Part shown: piece after piece, positions 1 to 64,000 of the stretch
How the letters are laid out: each line of letters starts with the position of its first letter
How positions within the stretch are numbered: the stretch's first letter is position 1
Source of the DNA: Candidatus Moraniibacteriota bacterium
GTDB lineage: Bacteria; Patescibacteriota; Minisyncoccia; Moranbacterales; UBA1568
Assembly: GCA_018062205.1 (NCBI GenBank)
Contig: JAGOSP010000004.1
Location: 198-64,197 of the forward strand
DNA length: 64,000 nt
Direction: 5' to 3'
Made by a program: the position numbers and the translations under genes
Notes under the pieces: model-generated
Seen by the model: the letters and a program-made list of their open reading frames with translations, nothing else
Databases searched by the model: none
Told to the model about the DNA's origin: nothing

Positions 1-171
1 GCAAATAAACTTAGTTCTCAAATAGTTTGGAATAATGAGTATTCGATTTTCAGGCCCTTGGCGAGCAGCTTGATACGCGTGATTAGATCTCTTTGGTTTT
101 TTGAACGATGAGTCTTGTTGGCTTGCCTGTTTAGGCGGAGCTCCTTGATGGTTTCATTCATTCAGGTTTTT

Positions 172-342
172 ATGTTTATGAAAAAATTAACAAAGAAACA
201 GTTGATATTTATAGCGTTCGGAGTACTAATTGCAGGAGAGACTGCAAATTTTTTTATCGGAGGGTCTGTAGGCCAATTTTTGGCTACAACAGGTGAAATT
301 GTTTTCTTTACTGCACTTGTTCTTCTGATGATTGTTTTCTAG
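172..342 (+). CDS. small hydrophobic hypothetical protein (about 56 aa, 2 predicted TM segments)
   Basis: ORF-track ORF 115..342 begins at TTG. An internal ATG at 172 gives MFMKKLTKKQLIFIAFGVLIAGE.., which is hydrophobic. No homology recognised. Confidence 0.25.
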   Translation: MFMKKLTKKQLIFIAFGVLIAGETANFFIGGSVGQFLATTGEIVFFTALVLLMIVF

Positions 343-612
343 TCAATAGTTTGGAATTTGTAGCATATACCGTATGTGGAATTGTTCAGGAGTATATCAG
401 GTATTCCCAAATTATTGAATCAGTATGAGTTTAAAATTTCTAAGCGCATCCTCTTGAGTGATTTCTGGAAAAAAGGTTTTAAAAAGCCTTTTTTTGTTGC
501 CTTATGTGGGAGCTGGATGATATGTATTGACTATTGTCTCTCATTCTGGGAGACTGGTTTTTCAAGAGTTATTTTTCCAATTTAAACAATCCGACTCCCT
601 TGGAGGTCACAC

Positions 613-1860
613 ATGAAATCACTCGTTCTTCGGAGTCGTGAAATCGAGGCAGCAACACAGCGTGTCTTGTCGGTGGCGGTACCTCTAGGAGCTATTTCGC
701 TTGTTACGCAGGTGCGGACGACAGTGGATGTTGATGAGGATCTTATCCCGAGTATCAAGGCACATGGACAACAAACGCCAGGCGTTGCAGTAGCACTCAC
801 TCCCGATGAGGCACGGCAATATATCGAAGAGATCAATGAGCTTTGGGGGAGTTGTCATCATATAGCTGACTTTCCGCTTGTAGAGCTTGATGGAGAGCGG
901 TACTACTTTATCTTGGTGGCGGGTCACCGTCGCTATGCTGCGTGCGCTATCCTTGCCGAAAATGCAGAACAGAATGCTGGTCAATCGGCTTTTGATGGGC
1001 GCTATCGGGTGGATATCCGATTTGGTATGCGGGTGAGCGAGACAATCCCACTTCAGTTCAATGAAAACAGGCATCAGCAGGTGCCTCCTCACGAAGAGGC
1101 TCGGGCTGCCTGGAAATTCTATCGGTGGCTCAAACGAAATGAACCAGAAATAACCATCTCTCAATTTGCTCGGAAGATCGGAAGGACGCCGGAATGGGTG
1201 CGCGGGGCATTGCGATTTTGTACACTTCCTTCTTCGGTACAGAACTACGCCGATGGAACTGACGGGTGTGTGAAACTGCCGTATAGTATTTTGACCAGTT
1301 TAGCGCGTCTTGGCGAAGGAATGTTTGAACTCACGGGCGAAGCATTTCCTGAGTTGGCGTATCACTCATGGATTGTGCGGGCTGTTGTTGGCCGGCTTAA
1401 CGCGACGGTGTTCAGGAAAACGGTGTCAGAATACCTGACATCCAAACAGCAAGAACATCGGGGCCAGCTTTCACTTTTTGGTTTGACAGAAGCGATTGTC
1501 GATGAGCGACCTCTCCGACGAGTGGTAGCTGCTCAAATGGTTCCGGCTGTTTGGACGATTCTCAGTTATTTGCAATCGTTGGAATGCGTACGAGAGAAGG
1601 GCGGTTTCGGTGATGAAAGTTATTTATCGCCAGAACTTGATTCTCGTGTGCGGACTCTCTATTCGCCAGGAAGCCCTCTGCATATTGTCACTCGTATCCT
1701 TGAGTATCTCGGGGTGCTCGTACCTCATCTTGAAGAGCTCGCTAGACGAGAGGGCAGCAGGCAGAGAAAAAAATTGCAACAAGGAGCTACGAACTTGCCG
1801 ATGGCAACAGAGCTTACCCAACAACTTTTTGCGTCGGAAAATGATGCAGCGCCCCAGTAA
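613..1860 (+). CDS. ParB/Srx-like nuclease-domain protein with central HTH
   Basis: Strong RBS (GGAGG) 7 nt before the ATG. The motif ILVAGHRRYAA matches ParB N-terminal box II (GxRRxxA). A predicted HTH is present (ITISQFARKIGRTPEWVRGAL). Local GC is clearly higher than the flanking AT-rich DNA. Confidence 0.65.
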   Translation: MKSLVLRSREIEAATQRVLSVAVPLGAISLVTQVRTTVDVDEDLIPSIKAHGQQTPGVAVALTPDEARQYIEEINELWGSCHHIADFPLVELDGERYYFILVAGHRRYAACAILAENAEQNAGQSAFDGRYRVDIRFGMRVSETIPLQFNENRHQQVPPHEEARAAWKFYRWLKRNEPEITISQFARKIGRTPEWVRGALRFCTLPSSVQNYADGTDGCVKLPYSILTSLARLGEGMFELTGEAFPELAYHSWIVRAVVGRLNATVFRKTVSEYLTSKQQEHRGQLSLFGLTEAIVDERPLRRVVAAQMVPAVWTILSYLQSLECVREKGGFGDESYLSPELDSRVRTLYSPGSPLHIVTRILEYLGVLVPHLEELARREGSRQRKKLQQGATNLPMATELTQQLFASENDAAPQ

Positions 1861-54667: not shown

Positions 54668-55273
54668 ATGGAAAGAAATGAGAAAAAACTGATTGAGGCG
54701 AGTTTACATGATGACGGGAAAGCTTTTGAAGAGCTTCTTTCGGTGTATCTCAGGCCAGTGTACGCATTTGTTTTGTTTCTGACTCGCGATGTTCCCATGG
54801 CGGAGGATGTCACTCAGGAAACGAGCATTAAAGTTTGGAAGCATCTCGCTCGTTTTGATACGGAGAAAAGTTTTAAAACCTGGGTGTTTGCTATTGCTAA
54901 GAATACCGCTTACGATGCTTTGAAAAAAAAACGTGATTTGCCATTCTCACTCTTTTCAAAGGGTGAAAATGAAGAAGAGGAAGATCTTTGGTCAGAGCGC
55001 ATTGTTGATGAGGCACCCCTTATAGACGAGCTCTTGGTTCGGGCGGAGAGTGCTGAGGTTTTAGACCAGAAATTAAACATGCTTTCACCTCGCTTCCAGC
55101 AGATTCTCCGATTACACTACCGAGAGGATTTTTCACTTGCGGAAATAGCCGAGATCCTTGGTGAACCTTATAACACTATTAAGAGTCGGCACGGAAGAGC
55201 TATTCGAAGTTTACGGCAGACTTTTGAAAAGAAGAGCTTCCTTATTGCGTCGGAGTTATCAGGAATATCGTAA
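54668..55273 (+). CDS. ECF-subfamily RNA polymerase sigma-70 factor
   Basis: Region 2 (YLRPVYAFVLFLTRDVPMAEDVTQETSIKVW) and region 4 (LSPRFQQILRLHYREDFSLAEIAEILGEPYNTIKSR). Confidence 0.85.
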   Translation: MERNEKKLIEASLHDDGKAFEELLSVYLRPVYAFVLFLTRDVPMAEDVTQETSIKVWKHLARFDTEKSFKTWVFAIAKNTAYDALKKKRDLPFSLFSKGENEEEEDLWSERIVDEAPLIDELLVRAESAEVLDQKLNMLSPRFQQILRLHYREDFSLAEIAEILGEPYNTIKSRHGRAIRSLRQTFEKKSFLIASELSGIS

Positions 55274-55287
55274 TCAAAGCAAAGCAT

Positions 55288-55704
55288 ATGAAATCATCCC
55301 TCTCCTCACTTCTCAAGTCACTTCCAGAACCGGAGCTCCCCGCTGGTTTTTCGGAGCGAATTTTTTCTGAGATAACACAATTGCAGGAGCGTAAGATGCG
55401 CCGGGCGATACTCTTTTCGTGGGTACGTATTGGAATATCAGGTCTCGTTTCTCTCCTCGCGATTTTTTTCGCAGGATCGACGATACTTGGTTCGGAATTT
55501 GCACAGCTTTTTTCATTGATTGTCTCCGATACCTTGGTTTTGACAACTTACGGTCGAGAGCTGTTTTGGCTCTTTTTAGAGACATTTCCGACCGTTCCTT
55601 TCGCTCTTTTATTTGTTCCATTATTTTTCTTTCTCCTTTCACTCGGTATGCATGCAACAGTAAAAAATCATTCTCAATTTCCCCAATTAGTATCCATCAC
55701 ATAA
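55288..55704 (+). CDS. putative anti-sigma factor (membrane protein downstream of the ECF sigma)
   Basis: Short cytoplasmic N-terminus followed by TM helices. The position is typical for an anti-sigma partner. Confidence 0.45.
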   Translation: MKSSLSSLLKSLPEPELPAGFSERIFSEITQLQERKMRRAILFSWVRIGISGLVSLLAIFFAGSTILGSEFAQLFSLIVSDTLVLTTYGRELFWLFLETFPTVPFALLFVPLFFFLLSLGMHATVKNHSQFPQLVSIT

Positions 55705-55714
55705 TCTTATTTGT

Positions 55715-56245
55715 ATGACTATGAATTTTCAAACATGCATGCAGTCTCAAGTTTTTCGATCAAGCGTAATTATAGTCGGAATTGCGTCTGTGGCGCTTGT
55801 GAGTTTTGCCGCTGGAGTGGCAGTTGGTTTGCATAAGGCTCGATTTTCGTATGCCTGGGGAGAGAACTATGAGCGGAATTTTCTTGGTGGTTCACATGGA
55901 TTTATGCCGGGTGATATGATGGGAAAAGGAGAAGGCTCGCGTGGTTTTCGAAACCCGCATGGAATATCGGGCATTGTTTTGTCGATAGAAAATGATTCTT
56001 TGTTTCTCAAAAATCGAAATAATAATCAGGAATCAAGTGTGCGTATCACCGATCAGACACTGCTTATGAAGCAACAGACAAAGATAGTTGTGAGCGATAT
56101 ACAGAAGAATGATATCGTAATGGTTGTTGGTAAGCCAGCTGAAGATGGTGTGGTGGTTGCTGATTTCGTCCGTGTTTTTGACCAGAATGAGAAGGACGAT
56201 GAAAGAGATTCTCGTCAGCCAATGGGTCGTAATCGTGGTAAATAA
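55715..56245 (+). CDS. hypothetical exported protein
   Basis: N-terminal signal-anchor. No motif recognised. In the same operon orientation. Confidence 0.45.
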   Translation: MTMNFQTCMQSQVFRSSVIIVGIASVALVSFAAGVAVGLHKARFSYAWGENYERNFLGGSHGFMPGDMMGKGEGSRGFRNPHGISGIVLSIENDSLFLKNRNNNQESSVRITDQTLLMKQQTKIVVSDIQKNDIVMVVGKPAEDGVVVADFVRVFDQNEKDDERDSRQPMGRNRGK

Positions 56246-56269
56246 GAGATTCTTTGTGAAAAATATCCT

Positions 56270-57397
56270 ATGATGCAGAGCATATTCACGTGGGGAAAAA
56301 GACACTGGAAACTGATTACTATTGGAGTGGTCTTTGCGGGTGGCGCATATTGGTATTTTGGAAATTCTTCTTCGGCAACCCAGGCTCCCGTTCAGAAAAC
56401 GGTGACTGTCGAGCGAGGTGATTTACGTGTTGTCGTATCGGGAAGTGGACAAGTGGAAGCTGTTTCACAGGTTGACTTGACGCCGGTTATCGCGGGAGAC
56501 GGTATTGATGTTTTGTTGGTACAAGTAGAGAATAATCAGATGGTAAAAAAGGGCCAGGTTATTGCTGTGCTGGATACTCAAGATGCAGTGCGCGATATCA
56601 AGAATGCTCAACTGAATCTTCAGAATGCAAAAATTAAACAGAAGCAAACAGAAGACATGTACGAAAAACAGACCAAAACTGATCTCTGGAACCGTCAGTT
56701 GCAGGAAATAGGAGTTGCGCAGAGTCAAAATAGTTTGAGTAAGGCACAGGAAAAACTTGCTGATTACTCAATCAAGGCACCTTTTGATGGTATTGTGACC
56801 GGCTTGAGTGTCGAAGCGGGAGACTCAGTTGCACGTAATACTATACTCGCATCAGTGATTACACCAGAACGAAAAATTGTGGTTAATCTGAATGAGGTTG
56901 ATGCGGCAAGGGTGGTCGAGGGTAATCGCGTAGAACTCTCTTTTAATGCGCTACCAAACCTGATACTTGGCGGAAAAGTTTCAAGAATAGCAACTATCGG
57001 TAAGGTGACCCAGAATGTTGTTTCTTATGAAGCAGACATTGAATTGGATGAACAAAATGATTCCATCAAACCAGGAATGAGTGTGAGTGCTGATATTTTG
57101 GTAGTAGAAAAAAAGAATGTCTTGCTCCTGCCGAATGCCGCGTTGAGTACGGATGAGGATGGTCAGGTGACGGTGAAAAAAAGAATGAACAATCGGAGTA
57201 CTCCAGATACACGCGGAACGGAGGCCCAGGCTATTGAGATTGGTTTGACTAATGATATACAGACTGAGGTGACGAGCGGTATAAATGAAGGAGATAAGGT
57301 GATTTTGCCATCTATTACTACGAGCGCGACCAAAGCCGCATCAGGCGGAAGTGTTCTCAGTTCATTGTTTCGGGGATCAGGAAGAAATAATCGGTAG
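56270..57397 (+). CDS. macA: efflux transporter periplasmic adaptor (membrane fusion protein, MacA/HlyD family)
   Basis: N-terminal TM, biotinyl/lipoyl-like half-domains, a coiled coil (AQLNLQNAKIKQKQTEDMYEK), and a beta-barrel region. Confidence 0.8.
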   Translation: MMQSIFTWGKRHWKLITIGVVFAGGAYWYFGNSSSATQAPVQKTVTVERGDLRVVVSGSGQVEAVSQVDLTPVIAGDGIDVLLVQVENNQMVKKGQVIAVLDTQDAVRDIKNAQLNLQNAKIKQKQTEDMYEKQTKTDLWNRQLQEIGVAQSQNSLSKAQEKLADYSIKAPFDGIVTGLSVEAGDSVARNTILASVITPERKIVVNLNEVDAARVVEGNRVELSFNALPNLILGGKVSRIATIGKVTQNVVSYEADIELDEQNDSIKPGMSVSADILVVEKKNVLLLPNAALSTDEDGQVTVKKRMNNRSTPDTRGTEAQAIEIGLTNDIQTEVTSGINEGDKVILPSITTSATKAASGGSVLSSLFRGSGRNNR

Positions 57398-57561
57398 TAT
57401 ACAGGGAGGGCGAGAGGGTTTTCTGACAGTTGATGAAAAGATGTCATTCTTGTTTTCTCTCACGGTGTATTTGTAGATCAGCAGAGGAATAAAAAACTCC
57501 CTTTATTTTTTCAATAACAGATGAAGGAGAGAGGAATATATTGATTTAGTGATTCAGATGT

Positions 57562-58257
57562 ATGATTGAATGTCGCGATATTCGCAAAACCTATCAAAAT
57601 GAAGGCGGCGATACTGAGGTGCTCAGGGGTATTTCATTTGCTATCGCGGATGGAGAATTTGTCTCGATTATGGGACCGAGTGGATCAGGAAAGTCAACGC
57701 TCATGCATATTCTAGGTGCACTTGATAGTCCTTCATCTGGAGGATACTTTCTGGATGGTCAGGATATGTCGAAGCGTTCAGATGATGAGCTTGCTCGTTT
57801 GCGGCGAGAAAAAATTGGATTTGTTTTTCAGGCATTTAATCTTTTGCCACGGACAAGCGTGGTACGCAATGTGATGCTACCACTTATTTATCAGGAGGCA
57901 CCAGTTGAAGATCGTATGAAGCAGGTTGAAGCTTCGCTTCTGGCAGTTGGACTTGACCGAGAGCATTGGACACATCAGTCAAATCAACTTTCTGGTGGAC
58001 AGATGCAGCGAGTGGCAATTGCACGAGCTCTTGTGAACAACCCATCTCTTATTCTTGCTGATGAACCAACCGGGAACCTGGACACCAAAACAGGAGAGTT
58101 GGTCCTTCAAACTTTCGAACGTTTGAACCGGGAGCATGGGCATACCATTATATTGATTACACACGAAGCGGATGTTGCCCGACATGCTGATCGGACGCTC
58201 CTCATTCGAGACGGACTGCTTGTGAGTGACATCCAAAATACGCCACGCAAGAAATAA
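57562..58257 (+). CDS. macB: ABC transporter ATP-binding protein (MacB/LolD family)
   Basis: Walker [10 protein letters not shown], the LSGGQ signature as [15 protein letters not shown], and Walker [12 protein letters not shown]. Confidence 0.9.
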
Positions 58258-58276
58258 TTTTTTTTCACCATCGATT

Positions 58277-59503
58277 ATGTTGGCAGGCGATCTTTCCTCA
58301 GAAATCTATGCGGCGCTTACGGTGAATAAATCACGGTCAGGTTTGACCGTGCTTGGTATCGTGATTGGTATTGCCTCGGTGATTATTATGGTAGCCATTG
58401 GCCGTGGGGCACAGGATTCAATACAGGCGAGTATTCAATCTATTGGTTCTAATTTGCTTATGGTACGTCCGGGTGCCGAACGGGAGCGTGGTTCATCCGT
58501 AGTTGGAGCACAAGGTTCAGCGCAATCATTAAAATTGGCAGACGCTGAAGTTTTGAAAAACACAGTATCGGATGTTTCGGCGATAGCTCCGGAAGTTTCT
58601 GCTCGTAATAAACAAGTAACTGCCGCAGGAAATAATACCAATACCAGCGTGACGGGTGTGACAGAAGAGTATGCGACTGTTCGTAATGTAAATATTGCAC
58701 AAGGAGCTTTTATTACCGCAGGACAAGTGCGTACTTTGGCCAAGGTAGCGGTAATTGGTCCGGATGTGGTGACAGCAATTTTTGGTGCTGACGCTTCAAA
58801 TCCGGTTGGAAAAAAACTTCGCATCTCTAATACAGACTTCACTATTATTGGAGTGACCATTCCTCGTGGGGGAACTGGTTTCGGTAGTTCGGATGATGTT
58901 ATTTATGTGCCTATTTCAACTGCACAACAATTTTTTACGGGAAATGAGTATCTCTCGAGTATAAACATTCAAGTCAAAGATGGTGCGGATATGAATGCAA
59001 CATCAGACGCTGTGAAGGCAGCACTTCTCTCGAGTCATCAGATTGCAGACCCAACCAAGGCAGACTTCTCGATTATGAATCAGGCGGATATTGTTTCAAC
59101 TGCTTCATCAGTGACGAGTACTTTTACAGCATTACTTGGTGCGGTGGCAGGAATCTCACTTTTAGTTGGTGGTATTGGAATTATGAATATGATGTTGACG
59201 ACAGTGACCGAGCGGACACGCGAGATTGGTTTGCGTAAGGCTATTGGGGCTGAAGGGGCTGATATTCGTAAACAATTTTTGTATGAAGCCATTGTACTGA
59301 CTTTTTCTGGTGGAGCTATCGGTGTTTTTCTCGGTTGGCTGGTAGCGGTTGTTGCGACCTCTTTTGGTCTGCCGGCGAGTATTTCTTCTGGTTCTATTCT
59401 CTTAGCTTTCGTGGTTTCGACAGCCATTGGTATTATTTTCGGTTATTACCCAGCGAGTCGCGCTGCTCGCATGAATCCCATCGAGGCTTTGCGATACGAA
59501 TAA
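58277..59503 (+). CDS. ABC transporter permease (MacB_PCD + FtsX domains)
   Basis: N-terminal TM. A periplasmic MacB-like core domain. Three C-terminal FtsX-type helices. Confidence 0.85.
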   Translation: MLAGDLSSEIYAALTVNKSRSGLTVLGIVIGIASVIIMVAIGRGAQDSIQASIQSIGSNLLMVRPGAERERGSSVVGAQGSAQSLKLADAEVLKNTVSDVSAIAPEVSARNKQVTAAGNNTNTSVTGVTEEYATVRNVNIAQGAFITAGQVRTLAKVAVIGPDVVTAIFGADASNPVGKKLRISNTDFTIIGVTIPRGGTGFGSSDDVIYVPISTAQQFFTGNEYLSSINIQVKDGADMNATSDAVKAALLSSHQIADPTKADFSIMNQADIVSTASSVTSTFTALLGAVAGISLLVGGIGIMNMMLTTVTERTREIGLRKAIGAEGADIRKQFLYEAIVLTFSGGAIGVFLGWLVAVVATSFGLPASISSGSILLAFVVSTAIGIIFGYYPASRAARMNPIEALRYE

Positions 59504-59533
59504 TGTCTACGAACAAACAGAGAAAAGAAAAAT

Positions 59534-59572
59534 CCGCACGCGAGCCAGAGGCAAGCGTGCGGTTTTTTTGTC
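59534..59572. terminator. strong Rho-independent terminator (usable in both directions)
   Basis: CCGCACGC-GAGCCAGAGGCAA-GCGTGCGG (8 bp GC stem). T-run on the plus side, A-run on the other side. Confidence 0.7.
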
Positions 59573-59574
59573 GT

Positions 59575-59875
59575 TCTCTGTTTCTACCAGTGACGATGCC
59601 CACGTCGGAAAAACCAGTGACGGATGACTTTCTTGGGAATGTTCCGAACAACCCGGAGATCGAGACTGTGGATACATCGAGGCCAGAACGGAGGCCTTGG
59701 TTTCGTGTAATGAGCAGACCTTCTCATCTGAAGATAGGCCATCGTTGCTCTGCGTGCAGCCCGTACCCTGCTGCTGTCCCTGTTTTCCGAACGATTCAAA
59801 ATCATCAACATGGTGTAGACCTCTCTTTTCTTGTCAGTGAAGCAGTGGGTACTTTTCCGGAAAGGAAAAGCTCTA
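59575..59875 (-). other. promoter/terminator-bounded roughly 340-nt transcription unit without convincing ORF (candidate ncRNA, or an Arg-rich 75-aa microprotein)
   Basis: Minus-strand promoter TTGACA-16nt-TATAAA at about 59880-59910. The unit terminates at the 59534-59572 hairpin. The only ORF (59584..59811, minus) is 20% Arg, with a GAGAGG RBS. Confidence 0.35.
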
Positions 59876-59964
59876 GAAAACTTTTATACTGCCCAGTTTT
59901 CCATTGTCAAACAACACACAATTGTACTTTTTTATCTTGTTTTCGTCAATGCAAAGACCCTATT

Positions 59965-60693
59965 TTATGACTGTAAATCTAAATCAGCCAGGAAGGCTTC
60001 GCGAGCAGCGCCGGAAATAGGACGTGACTGGCCAGGGTTCATTGCACCGAGGCGTACCTGCATAATACGCACGCGTTTTAGAGCAATAACAGTGAGATGG
60101 ATAGCCGAGAGCATGCGACGAATTTGATGCTTTTTTCCTTCAGTTAGAATGATGGTCAGGGTATTTTTGTTTGTGATGCGGACTGATTTGGCAGTGAGGA
60201 GTTCTCCTTCTTCCATGATGCCGGCTTCGAGATAGGGAAGCTTGGTGACGTCGATGGTTTCCTGCACCGTGACCTCATATTCTTTCTCATGCGCGAAGCG
60301 AGGGTGGAGTAGGCGCTCAGTGATGCGCCCGTCATTGGTGAGAATAATAAGACCCTCGGAGTCTTTATCAAGTCGGCCAATCGGGAAGAGATCTGATTTC
60401 TTGGTGACATCGGCGATGGAATACTCCCTTTTTCCTTGGGGTGAGTGAGTGATGATGCCACGTGGCTTGTAGTATGCGAGATAGGTGTGATGCCGGCGGT
60501 TTGCGTTTTCAACAGTAATCTGGTCTGTTTCGGAAATTTTCATACCGAGCACGGCTTTTTGTCCGTTGACGATGATGCGACCGGCTTCGATGAGCGCATC
60601 AGCTTCGCGGCGTGTGGCGATACCTTGTTTTGCGAGATAACGATTGAGGCGCATTGGAAATGTGGCGTCTTCTGGAGTGAGAGGAGTTTTCAT
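59965..60693 (-). CDS. rsuA: pseudouridine synthase, RsuA/RluB family (S4 + PseudoU_synth_2)
   Basis: N-terminal S4 domain (RLNRYLAKQGIATRREADALIEAGRI). Catalytic GRLDKDSEGL and HQIRRM. Confidence 0.85.
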   Translation of the reverse strand: MKTPLTPEDATFPMRLNRYLAKQGIATRREADALIEAGRIIVNGQKAVLGMKISETDQITVENANRRHHTYLAYYKPRGIITHSPQGKREYSIADVTKKSDLFPIGRLDKDSEGLIILTNDGRITERLLHPRFAHEKEYEVTVQETIDVTKLPYLEAGIMEEGELLTAKSVRITNKNTLTIILTEGKKHQIRRMLSAIHLTVIALKRVRIMQVRLGAMNPGQSRPISGAAREAFLADLDLQS

Positions 60694-60765
60694 ATGAGAT
60701 TTGTGAATGAGTGATTAATTAAAGAGAGAAAAATGTTATTTTGTTGTAGCCATATATTTTGAATG

Positions 60766-63700
60766 TTATCTGTTTTGAAACCAGCTTTTATAAATGACGG
60801 GAATGAAGAAGAGTTTCGCAACACCAGAAAAAGTAAGGCCAGCAATAATAGCTCCTCCGAGTCCCTGCCAAATTGGATCGGAAAGTGTGATAGGAATGAG
60901 ACCAATGATGGTGGTAAGGGCGGTGAGGAGTATCGGCTCGAGTCGGCTGGCTGCCCCGGAAGCAATTGCTTCATCGAGATCGGACATGCACTCCATATTT
61001 TTATTGATCTTGTCGACCATAATAATAGAATTATTCACTACAATACCGAACAGTGCCAGAACACCGATAAGCGCAGGGAAAGAAAGTGGAATACCGAACA
61101 GCGCAAAGATAACAAAGACTCCAGAAACCGCAAGGGGGATAACCAGAAGTACGATGATAGCTTTACGAAAGGAATTAAATTGCATCACCATCGTAGCGAA
61201 TATCAACGCTGCCGAGAGAAGCATCGCAAGAAGAATCGAACGAACAGATTTTGTGTTTTCTTCGTTTACTCCTCCAGTTTGAAAGGAATATCCATCAGGA
61301 AAGACGACATTCTTTTGAACATAGGTCTCAAGGTTTTTACTTTCAGTTGAGACACTGTAGCCTGGCGTGACGTCCGCAGTGACAGAGAGGACGCGATTCC
61401 CGTCTTCGCGATCAATACTGGCAGGATTTTCTTTCAGGATAAAACGTCCGAGAGCAGACAGTGGAATCATACCTGTTGATCCGCTCACAAAGAGTCTCTC
61501 GGGATCAGAGAGAGTTGCTCCCTGAGAATCATCAGTGAGAGCAATTGCGATATCCATTTTCTGATTATCAAAACGGGCATCATTTTTTGCTATGAAGCCA
61601 TTACCGAGGGTGCGGAGAGTAAGTGCTAATCCATCAGTTGTGACACCAAAGTGAGCCAGCGCTTCTGTATCAGGAACAAAAACGAGTTTCCCTTTGACAG
61701 AGAGAGAAGTGGAAATATTCGTGACAGAAGATTTTTCTTTGAGGTGATCCTGAATTGTTTTGGCGAGTTTGTCGAGAGTTTCAAGATTTGATCCAAGGAG
61801 TTTAAGTGTAATATCACTTCCAGCTGGTGGTCCTCCGGAAATTTGTGTGGCAGAAATCTCCCCTTCGTTTGAGGAGGCATATTGACGGTTCAGCCGATCA
61901 ACCAGCGCACCTGAAGTTTCGTTACGATCTTTTTTATCTGGAAGAATCAAAGTGAAGAGGATTTCGTTGGTGTCAGGGGTGGAGGGGCTATTGTCTGTTG
62001 GCGGTTTGGCGCCAATTTCTGCAACGACAAAATTGGCGAGCGCCTCAAGACGTATTTTCTCGGCGAAATCAATCGCTTGCGAGCGACTTTTTTCGGGTGA
62101 TGTGCCAACGGGAAGTTTGAGTCGAAGATACACGATCGATTGATCATCTTCAGGAAAAAATTCATTGACAACATATCCTGTCGGAACGAGCACGTAGGAG
62201 AAAAGAGAAAAAAGAATAAGCATGGCGAAAGTGCGTCGGCGGAGTTTTTTTGAGGCGAGGATATTTTTGATGAAAATATGATAACGAGCCGCTATTCGAT
62301 CTAGATTAAGGTTTGCGCGGAGAGTCGCAAGCTGAGCAAGCCAGTTCGTTGTGCGCGGAAAAGCGATGAGGCGAGGGATGACCGTTGAAAAAGAGAATAG
62401 AATGATGCTGAGCGCAATAAGACTTGCTACCAGAGCGGGAACAAAAAAGAGACTTCCTTTGAAGAATATGAATAGCGACAAGATGACTGTAGTGGTGAGA
62501 AACACCTTGCCAAGAATGTTCACCCGTCGTGGTATGTTTCCAGCGAGAAGCGCGGCCATGAACGGAAGAATAATAAACAATGCGATAAGGGCCGAAAGGG
62601 CGAGTGCAGTGGAGACAACAATAGGGATTGGCTTGATGAATTCGCCAATGATTCCAGAAGCCAAGAGAAGTGGAAGAAAGGCCCAGACAGTAGTGATAGT
62701 TGTAGTAAGAATGACAACTCGGTAATCAGCAAAGACTTGAAGGGTTGTCTGCATGGGGTCCTCGTTGATAAAAATTCGTCGTCGACTTGAAACAGCAGAG
62801 ACGATAACAATAGCATTATCAACCAGAATTCCTAATGCTAAGAGAAGAGAAAAGAGTGATATGAAATTAATGGAAAGACCGGAGAGTTGCATAACAAGAA
62901 AGGTGCCGAGAAAGGTGATTGGAATGGCGAGTGCCGCAACAACGGATTGACGAAATCCGAAGAAGGTAAGAAGTACCAAAAAAACTAAGAAAAAAGTAAG
63001 AAGAAAATCATGAAGAAGCTGGTCGAAGCTTTTACTAATTTCTTGGCCACCATCAAAAAGTGCGGCGAGAGTAATATGTCCTCCTTCTTGATCCGCAAGA
63101 GATTGTGCCGTTCTTAGTACGGTATCGACTGTGGTTCGTGTATCGGCGGTATCACTTTTGAAAACTGAGAGTAAAATAGCCGGTGTCGGTGATGTCTCGC
63201 GATCAGCAAAAAAAGCTTCGGTGCCTCCTGGCGGTGCACGTTCAGTGATACGAGCGATTGATCCGAGTGGCATGATGGTGCCGCCAAGAGAGAGAGGAAG
63301 CGAGCGGATATCGCTGGCAGAATCAGCGAGCTTCTCAATGCCGAGGGTATACTTGGTGTTTGTACTCTGAAGTGATCCAGATGGATGGTTATCGAGTGCG
63401 CTTCCGATGCTTGCTCCCAGCGCTGGAACCGAGAGACGATAGGTGTCGATTGTTTCTGGCGTGATGGCAACCTGTATGACGGGTTCATTCCGATAAGAAA
63501 GAGCTACTCGTTCAACGCCAGACAAATCTTTGACGGTTTCCTTGAGTGCATCAGCGAAGTGTTCGAGTGATGCTTGTTCACCGTTGCGATTTGTCACGGC
63601 TAGGATGAGCGAGGGCTGATTCTGGAAATCAAGAACTTGAATATTGGGCTTCTCGGCATCTTTTGGAAGAGTTGTTACACTGTCGAGAGCTGTTTGAACA

Positions 63701-64000
63701 TCGTTTTTGGCTGTATCCGGATCAGTTCCCGATACAAACTCAAGTGTAATATGAGAAACACTTTCTTGAGAGGTTGCGGTTGCTTTGGTGACCCCGGAAA
63801 GATTTTCAAGAGCATCTTCAAGCGGAATAGTAACTAGCTGCTCCATATCTTCAGGATCAGTACCTGGGAGAAGGGTAGTCACGAAGACAATGGGGATTTG
63901 GATATTTGGATTGAGTTCTTTCGTCAGCGTGACATAGCTCGTGAGACCAGCGCCGGAGAGAATGATGGCAATGAGCGAAACAACGCGGATGCGTGAAAAA
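60766..64000 (-). CDS. RND-superfamily efflux permease (AcrB/HAE family), 5' end beyond window
   Basis: At least 1038 aa with the 12-TM, two-large-loop architecture. The reading frame stays open upstream of the track start at 63882 to the window edge, where the translation FFTRIRVVSLIAIILSGAGL.. resembles the AcrB TM1 region. Confidence 0.85.
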   Translation of the reverse strand, partial: FSRIRVVSLIAIILSGAGLTSYVTLTKELNPNIQIPIVFVTTLLPGTDPEDMEQLVTIPLEDALENLSGVTKATATSQESVSHITLEFVSGTDPDTAKNDVQTALDSVTTLPKDAEKPNIQVLDFQNQPSLILAVTNRNGEQASLEHFADALKETVKDLSGVERVALSYRNEPVIQVAITPETIDTYRLSVPALGASIGSALDNHPSGSLQSTNTKYTLGIEKLADSASDIRSLPLSLGGTIMPLGSIARITERAPPGGTEAFFADRETSPTPAILLSVFKSDTADTRTTVDTVLRTAQSLADQEGGHITLAALFDGGQEISKSFDQLLHDFLLTFFLVFLVLLTFFGFRQSVVAALAIPITFLGTFLVMQLSGLSINFISLFSLLLALGILVDNAIVIVSAVSSRRRIFINEDPMQTTLQVFADYRVVILTTTITTVWAFLPLLLASGIIGEFIKPIPIVVSTALALSALIALFIILPFMAALLAGNIPRRVNILGKVFLTTTVILSLFIFFKGSLFFVPALVASLIALSIILFSFSTVIPRLIAFPRTTNWLAQLATLRANLNLDRIAARYHIFIKNILASKKLRRRTFAMLILFSLFSYVLVPTGYVVNEFFPEDDQSIVYLRLKLPVGTSPEKSRSQAIDFAEKIRLEALANFVVAEIGAKPPTDNSPSTPDTNEILFTLILPDKKDRNETSGALVDRLNRQYASSNEGEISATQISGGPPAGSDITLKLLGSNLETLDKLAKTIQDHLKEKSSVTNISTSLSVKGKLVFVPDTEALAHFGVTTDGLALTLRTLGNGFIAKNDARFDNQKMDIAIALTDDSQGATLSDPERLFVSGSTGMIPLSALGRFILKENPASIDREDGNRVLSVTADVTPGYSVSTESKNLETYVQKNVVFPDGYSFQTGGVNEENTKSVRSILLAMLLSAALIFATMVMQFNSFRKAIIVLLVIPLAVSGVFVIFALFGIPLSFPALIGVLALFGIVVNNSIIMVDKINKNMECMSDLDEAIASGAASRLEPILLTALTTIIGLIPITLSDPIWQGLGGAIIAGLTFSGVAKLFFIPVIYKSWFQNR

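Follow-up and report, generated by a model that had tools for sequence, protein, structure and literature searches.

Small open reading frames (ORFs) on short transcripts are known from several bacterial systems. Dual-function RNAs such as SgrS/SgrT and leader or arrest peptides such as TnaC, SecM and SpeFL are examples: a small ORF sits on a short transcript, and conservation centres on its C-terminal end, with the stop codon and an RNA signal close by downstream. Type II toxin–antitoxin systems with a small basic first gene, such as the hicAB-like and higBA-like ones, combine a two-gene operon of small proteins with a promoter palindrome, a patchy distribution, fast evolution and orphan single-gene copies. 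The DUF1127 proteins (PF06568) of Proteobacteria, among them CcaF1 and YjiS, are arginine-rich, about 50–75 aa in length, and encoded by free-standing genes with their own promoters; they show that a protein so small and so rich in arginine can function in RNA binding or regulation (PMC11707872). Here we describe a locus in a 64,000-nt stretch of a Candidatus Moraniibacteriota genome (assembly GCA_018062205.1, contig JAGOSP010000004.1, positions 198 to 64,197; hereafter, the window), in which a gap of 461 nt separates rsuA from a convergent macB-type permease gene. The gap holds one or two promoters, a ribosome-binding site (RBS) and a 75-aa ORF (ORF1), all on the minus strand, together with a hairpin.

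An earlier note on this DNA, made from the sequence alone, had read the unit either as a structured non-coding RNA (ncRNA), possibly an RNase P-like one, or as an arginine- and tryptophan-rich microprotein. Syntenic homologues, an open frame and a synonymous pattern of C-terminal substitutions argue for the microprotein. The unit is most probably a monocistronic protein-coding gene that belongs to an unannotated, clade-restricted and fast-evolving microprotein family. This family has so far been found only in a narrow group of Moraniibacteriota (Patescibacteria, or candidate phyla radiation, CPR). Read in this way, the annotation is to be corrected: the intergenic gap would hold a real gene missed by gene callers, not an RNase P-like RNA. 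ORF1 resembles the DUF1127 proteins in size, arginine content and its free-standing gene with a promoter of its own. Unlike them, it has no DUF1127 match in Pfam even at E ≤ 10 and is encoded by Patescibacteria, and its motif is a different one, located at the extreme C-terminus. The features of the locus are listed in Table 1.

Table 1. Positions of the features of the cassette and of related loci; window positions are counted from the first letter of the 64,000-nt stretch.
Feature	Locus	Positions	Strand	Details	Source
macB-type permease gene	window	58226–59503	plus	convergent with rsuA	
Antisense ORF	window	59335–59970	plus	211 aa; overlaps the 3' end of macB and spans the whole gap	
Compound bidirectional intrinsic terminator	window	59515–59583	both	core stem 59562–59555 with 59541–59534; outer stem 59574–59583 with 59515–59524	
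ORF1	window	59584–59811	minus	ATG 59811–59809; TAG 59586–59584	ORF list
Conserved C-terminal 23 codons, RVVRNIPKKVIRHWFFRRGHRHW	window	59587–59655	minus	RRGHRHW at 59587–59607	
Direct repeat CGTCACTGGT	window	59586–59595 and 59613–59622	minus	perfect, 10 nt, 27 nt apart	
Polymorphism cluster	window	59708–59750	minus	59750 G>A (R21K), 59738 C>T (A25V), 59708 A>G (Y35C)	
5' untranslated region (5' UTR)	window	59812–59914	minus	about 103 nt from P1; local hairpins 59903–59874 and 59871–59851; RBS GAGAGG 59825–59820	
Promoter P2 (of the earlier note)	window	59883–59910	minus	TTGACA 59910–59905, 16-nt spacer, TATAAA 59888–59883	sequence
Conserved box GTTGTTTGACAA	window	59904–59915	minus	near the transcript start	alignment
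Promoter P1	window	59921–59949	minus	-35 TTGACG 59949–59944, 17-nt spacer, -10 TACAAT 59926–59921	promoter scan
rsuA	window	59965–60693	minus		
ORF2	L014	5123–5419		second cassette gene	
ORF2	L089	511–807		second cassette gene	
ORF2	L090	735–1031		second cassette gene	
Cassette and HTH-gene region	L100 (941-nt contig)	5–331 (minus) and 576–785			
rsuA–macB gap without cassette	L010	2157–2192			
rsuA–macB gap without cassette	L011	4726–4752			
P0007 (rejected match)	L101	2001–3032		343 aa	

Coding constraint and orthologues of ORF1

The product of ORF1 has an isoelectric point (pI) of 12.0 and contains 16 Arg (21%) and 3 Trp; the arginine-rich ORF with its GAGAGG RBS is present as the earlier note had described it. 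Homologues of 65–69 aa were found in sister Moraniibacteriota. Between rsuA and macB, ORF1 is located in L014 (65 aa), L089 and L090 (67 aa each), and L098 (67 aa; protein P0004, GCA_009612895.1), and a 69-aa ORF1 (P0006) is located in another genomic context in L100. Together with the window, these five loci constitute the six lineages compared below; the members of the family beyond L014 were gathered via the neighbours of the second cassette gene of L014 and by a profile search. In a further locus, L009, the same promoter and a similar-looking N-terminus can be noted, and the contig stops there. ORF1 was called as a gene by the source annotation in the sister-species contigs L090, L092, L097, L098, L099 and L100, and the members from sister genomes are already deposited as unnamed proteins. 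A tblastn comparison of the last 23 residues of ORF1 with the end of the 65-aa ORF of L014 indicated 52% identity (E 0.006–0.009), and the sole blastn match between the gap and L014 is 52 nt of the promoter. As for the host organisms, the RsuA protein is identical on 24 contigs, one of which is a metagenome-assembled genome (GCA_017991955.1), and the relatives at 90–93% RsuA identity carry the labels Moraniibacteriota or Patescibacteria.

The frame of ORF1 is the only one of the six frames that is free of stop codons in all six lineages, and the differences in ORF1 length between the lineages (65, 67, 67, 67, 69 and 75 aa) are whole codons. The terminal RRGHRHW and the stop codon following it are invariant in the six lineages; variation is seen at five of the seven codons and is synonymous throughout, and both TAG and TAA occur as the stop. 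The consensus of the family C-terminus is R..R[NH].P....R....RRGHRHW-COOH, and the pI of the family members ranges from 10.4 to 12.0. When the last 23 codons of the window and L014 are compared, 8, 6 and 17 differences are found at the first, second and third codon positions, respectively, with proportions of non-synonymous (pN) and synonymous (pS) differences of 0.33 and 0.83. Across the relatives, the corresponding ranges are 8–10, 6–9 and 15–17 differences (pN 0.33–0.41, pS 0.76–0.83). The conservation of ORF1 shows a synonymous-substitution pattern, an outcome that the earlier note had set against its own ncRNA proposal.

The flanking genes give the scale for these values. Between the same genomes, the synonymous divergence (dS) of rsuA and macB is 1.2–3.1, and the ratio of non-synonymous to synonymous divergence (dN/dS) is 0.025–0.045. 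Neutral sequence is therefore saturated, and an unconstrained 228-nt ORF, the position of its stop codon and its promoter would not survive. Despite this saturation, three elements are found again at the loci of the sister species: the upstream promoter, the ORF together with its stop codon, and a terminator at the matching position. Over the whole ORF1, pairwise dN/dS is 0.36–1.0, and the coding signal is weaker than in the C-terminal codons. ORF1 of the window is about 30% identical to its relatives, against 91–93% for RsuA. Fast-evolving microproteins may thus show a coding signal in a few C-terminal codons, which becomes visible only by syntenic comparison across synonymously saturated species.

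The antisense ORF, which covers the entire gap on the plus strand, was considered and rejected: it is interrupted by stop codons in three lineages. Its codons are in register with those of ORF1, and the substitution bias fits the minus-strand frame only, because third positions of the sense frame are first positions of the antisense frame.

Variation within the species is concentrated in the same gene. The L005 and L007 contigs differ from the window at only three positions in about 6.1 kb, and a 43-nt stretch of ORF1 contains all of them. These single-nucleotide polymorphisms (SNPs) are all transitions, all at second codon positions and all non-synonymous. The L001 contig carries the same three SNPs plus other differences. 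This clustering departs far from randomness: by our estimate, chance would place all the SNPs inside ORF1 with a probability on the order of 10^-3 or lower. The cluster could stem from diversifying selection, from recombination over a small patch or from a mutational hotspot at this place.

In the AlphaFold2 model of ORF1, a long helix (residues 5–35) is followed by a Pro-rich linker and a short helix (residues 61–69). With low confidence, the protein can be described as mostly helical with a Pro-rich linker; the model is too uncertain (pLDDT, the predicted local distance difference test score, of 60), and a fold search with it was therefore ruled out. The direct repeat at the 3' end of the gene encodes RHW twice (IRHWFFRRGHRHW, then the stop codon). 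The first RHW is species-specific; the relatives read RVG or RVE there.

Anatomy and variation of the cassette

P1, which agrees with the consensus at 10 of 12 positions in the promoter scan, begins 16 nt past the rsuA stop codon, and the transcription start would lie near 59914. It is conserved in six relatives (L014, L089, L090, L098, L100 and L009) as TTGAC with the -10 element AGTAYART, although the flanking genes are saturated at synonymous sites. The earlier note had placed the promoter of the unit further downstream, at P2. The sequence of P2 is indeed present and agrees with the consensus at 11 of 12 positions, yet its hexamers are not conserved: the aligned relatives have TTTAAC or TTAACA and GTACGR, and it is the upstream P1 that the species share. 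The absence of P2 from the list of the promoter scan is explained by the requirement of the scan for T at the last -10 position. Judging from the alignment, P2 would be a second promoter peculiar to this species or else a fortuitous match. Promoter-like sites occur in the region at the chance level (4 found against 3.2 ± 2.0 expected).

The TTGACA hexamer of P2 results from an A-to-G difference within the conserved box of the window, and the matching TATAAA is located in non-conserved sequence. In the relatives, the 12-mer at the position of the box is GTTGTTTAACAA, which contains the palindrome TTGTT-T-AACAA, and the GTTGTTTRACAA box is conserved together with P1. Of the fetched loci, only those that bear the cassette have an exact copy of the 12-mer, and matches with one mismatch in the window are at the chance level (3 found, about 1 expected). 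The palindromic box may be an operator. The GAGAGG RBS sits 8 nt ahead of the ATG in the window; the RBS of the relatives ahead of the ATG is AAAGGAAT.

The strong 8-bp GC hairpin, which according to the earlier note would end the transcript, was also found. In its core stem, CCGCACGC pairs with GCGTGCGG, with an A-run upstream and a U-run downstream. The minus strand of the hairpin folds with an energy of -23.4 kcal/mol (z -4.2); for the plus strand, the energy is -26.1 kcal/mol (z -5.0). Since the fold is strong on both strands, it can be regarded as a bidirectional terminator, and the earlier account needs the addition that it also serves the convergent macB gene. The outer stem is a perfect 10-bp helix that brings the hairpin to 1 nt from the ORF1 stop codon, the core stem being located 21 nt from the stop. 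A simple terminator scan overlooks this hairpin because its loop is longer than 8 nt. Across the orthologous loci, the position of the terminator is kept and its sequence differs between species.

In L014, L089 and L090, ORF1 is followed by a second gene, ORF2, which encodes an acidic protein of 98 aa with a pI of 4.98 (P0001–P0003). The 17 nt from the ORF1 stop to the ORF2 ATG include an AAGGAG RBS, and in L014 a terminator is located downstream of ORF2. In the window and in L098, ORF2 is absent, and ORF1 stands alone with a terminator past its stop codon; after the ORF1 stop in the window, all that is left of the ORF2 RBS region is a degenerate match, and then comes the terminator. The L098 and L090 sequences are 98% identical over their shared stretch, and therefore ORF2 was lost or gained recently. 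ORF2 has never been seen without ORF1, and ORF1 does occur without ORF2.

The entire cassette is missing from this place in two sister species. In L010 and L011, the gene order acrB–rsuA followed by the convergent macB is kept, with 25–35 nt between the stop codons and no cassette; in L014, the gap between rsuA and macB is about 780 nt. No terminator hairpin is evident between the convergent rsuA and macB genes in L010 and L011. On a rough RsuA tree, the cassette-less L010 and L011 are nested within the cassette-bearing group, which suggests, as the simplest history, an ancestral cassette with one loss in the L010/L011 lineage. In L100, the cassette, with the same promoter and 12-mer, adjoins not rsuA but a 108-aa gene with sub-threshold Pfam matches of the transposase-type helix-turn-helix (HTH). 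This context hints at mobility of the cassette.

Proposed mode of action and competing explanations

In the most probable reading, a protein-coding gene, the conserved sigma-70-type promoter P1 would drive transcription of the unit, perhaps joined by the species-specific P2; ribosomes would initiate at the GAGAGG RBS and the ATG at 59811, and transcription would end at the bidirectional terminator common with macB, which starts 1 nt past the stop codon. The ORF1 product would act in trans, binding a polyanionic partner via its Arg-rich helices and invariant C-terminal tail; candidate partners are nucleic acids (RNA or DNA) and acidic proteins, of which ORF2 would be one. The protein may also regulate its own synthesis via the palindromic box at the transcription start. 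Because the tail is invariant in lineages without ORF2, whatever activity depends on the C-terminus would be independent of ORF2, and because ORF1 can exist alone, it would not be a toxin that needs to be neutralised by ORF2.

Several observations weigh against the gene, or against this mode of action. In all eight of the listed contigs of the same species, the gap has no called gene. The family is tiny, with its six lineages. ORF1 of the window is only 27–30% identical to its relatives, the N-terminal two thirds being barely alignable, and the family-wide dN/dS indicates that much of the protein is weakly constrained. That all three SNPs are non-synonymous would also be expected from relaxed constraint or decay. 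The structural model of ORF1 is of low confidence, and the proposed binding mechanism finds no support in a domain, a fold or the literature.

The reading as a structured RNA, RNase P-like, 6S-like or of a new class, in which the function would lie in the transcript of about 340–390 nt and the ORF would be fortuitous, is the least likely of the rivals; we consider it highly improbable and largely refuted. It can draw on the promoter and terminator of the unit, on the failure of the gene callers to call the ORF in the window species, and on the minimum-free-energy fold, which shows the several internal hairpins and the 5'/3' end pairing proposed in the earlier note. The fold of the whole unit, however, is only marginally better than that of shuffled sequences (z -1.9; 3 of 100 shuffles equal it), and the UAGAAA arm of the end pairing includes the ORF1 stop codon. 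The 5' UTR of the window does not outdo shuffled sequences in folding (z -0.08), and z ranges from -0.08 to -1.7 over all 5' UTR folds. A search of the entire window for tRNA, tmRNA and Rfam families at the gathering score revealed none. At E ≤ 10, the region 59400–60050 gave no credible Rfam match, with RNase P (RF00010/RF00011) and 6S both absent, and Rfam found nothing in six orthologous loci, RNase P included. The best sub-threshold match, STnc320 (E 0.34), is the terminator hairpin alone, and so is the Thr_leader match. In the RNAalifold consensus of the six orthologous units, the energy is weak and the covariation term is +2.62, where a positive value is a penalty. Conserved RNA structure was rejected on these grounds. 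What is conserved tracks the reading frame: the RRGHRHW variation is synonymous only, the frame is open and the indels are whole codons. In our reading, the three SNPs are not compensatory in the predicted helices either, as one breaks a terminal G–C pair, one changes C–G to U–G and one is unpaired. The likeness to RNase P RNA is limited to the approximate length and the possible 5'/3' closing helix, and the absence of the unit from the locus in L010 and L011 would be unexpected for an RNase P gene.

Among the explanations that accept the ORF, a cis-acting role is very unlikely. The nascent C-terminus would stall the ribosome near the stop codon and thereby control the ORF2 RBS in the relatives or, in the window, the formation of the terminator hairpin 1–12 nt past the stop. 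The conservation is indeed concentrated in the final residues up to the stop, with the remainder evolving fast, and the stop is close to the terminator stems in the window and to the ORF2 RBS and ATG in L014, an arrangement like that of the leader and arrest peptides TnaC, SecM and SpeFL. A length of 65–75 aa is nevertheless large for such a peptide, and in the window and L098 there is no downstream gene to regulate; read-through would run antisense into macB. Decay is an improbable account in which the lineage of the window lost ORF2 from a two-gene ancestor and ORF1, perhaps transcribed and no longer functional, is drifting to loss. The missing ORF2, of which the degenerate RBS-region match is left, the divergence of the N-terminal part, the three non-synonymous SNPs and the loss of the whole cassette in L010 and L011 are all consistent with it. 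Yet with dS above 1 in the flanks, drift would bring stops or frameshifts, and the ORF, promoter, RBS and RRGHRHW are intact; moreover, L098 independently retains an intact lone ORF1 with its own terminator. Unlikely, too, is a toxin–antitoxin-like or conflict module in which ORF1 is either a DNA-binding regulator or an antitoxin-like protein accompanied by an ORF2 effector, or else a basic effector checked by ORF2, the window carrying an orphan copy. The relatives' operon of a basic protein of about 65 aa (pI about 12 in the window) and an acidic one of about 98 aa, with tight spacing and a strong RBS, resembles type II toxin–antitoxin systems, and so do the palindrome at the transcription start, the patchy presence among sister species, the fast evolution with clustered non-synonymous polymorphisms and the occurrence of ORF1 without ORF2 and never the reverse; the gene with sub-threshold transposase-type HTH matches beside the L100 cassette fits as well. 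This likeness is one of organisation only: no toxin, antitoxin or defence model of Pfam, NCBIfam, PADLOC or PHROGs matched at E ≤ 10, the best match in the ORF2 fold search (E 0.1) is not significant, viral contigs and phage genomes yielded no relative, the window has ORF1 alone, and the invariant C-terminus, which persists without ORF2, is not simply an ORF2-binding tail.

A bolder version of the protein-coding reading, to which we attach a rather small probability, regards ORF1 as the core of a new, fast-diversifying conflict or interaction module of CPR episymbionts: a cationic effector acting via its RRGHRHW tail, which might bind to RNA, the ribosome or a target in the host cell, with ORF2 as an optional modulator and with diversifying selection within populations. 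Such selection would explain why, in two pairs of co-circulating strains, three non-synonymous SNPs in ORF1 are the only differences over about 6.1 kb. If ORF1 were an effector or regulator specific to episymbionts, the RRGHRHW tail, the optional ORF2, the presence and absence of the cassette and the SNP cluster would offer a tractable entry into CPR-specific biology; as the evidence stands, it counts as another small orphan protein.

Searches for further relatives and gene neighbourhood

Searches of Pfam, NCBIfam, PADLOC and PHROGs at E ≤ 10 gave no match for ORF1 or ORF2, and PDB sequence searches with either protein revealed nothing significant. The AlphaFold2 model of ORF2 (pLDDT 71) has a beta-beta-alpha-beta-beta-alpha arrangement; the PDB fold search with it also returned nothing significant, its top matches being type III secretion system chaperones and eIF1 (E ≥ 0.1).

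No further relatives were found among 5.8 billion clustered proteins, 1.84 billion representatives, the JGI metagenomes and IMG/VR; scans of the last two with the family alignment yielded no true relative besides the contig of L098 itself. Viral contigs and phage genomes contained no relative of the cassette proteins, and a DNA search of phage genomes with the unit gave no match. A direct homology search with the 75-aa peptide produced no candidate with enough shared words. A HMMER search with the same peptide against the 1.84 billion representatives returned one match, P0007 (GCA_030522465.2), which was rejected as a spurious, translated repeat. This protein consists of four tandem repeats of about 74 aa, each of which shares just PPFWP.C...LD with ORF1, and its E-value is inflated because the four repeats are summed; the contig is 6.5 Mb long and probably eukaryotic. 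L103 was also rejected, the match being off-frame within a high-GC gene. No second copy of the unit was found within the window, and no terminal inverted or direct repeats of a mobile element surround it; the inverted repeats that are present (I1 and I4) are the stems of the terminator.

The cassette is located among exporter genes (window positions about 54900–64000; gene tables of L001 and L002). Upstream of rsuA, an RND (resistance-nodulation-division) pump is encoded, consisting of an adaptor and a 1097-aa AcrB-like protein. The operon facing rsuA is of the MacB type and comprises a YknX-like adaptor, an ABC ATPase and an FtsX/MacB permease; it is preceded by an ECF (extracytoplasmic function)-type sigma factor and two proteins of 176 and 138 aa without a Pfam match. 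A link between ORF1 and the exporters is possible.

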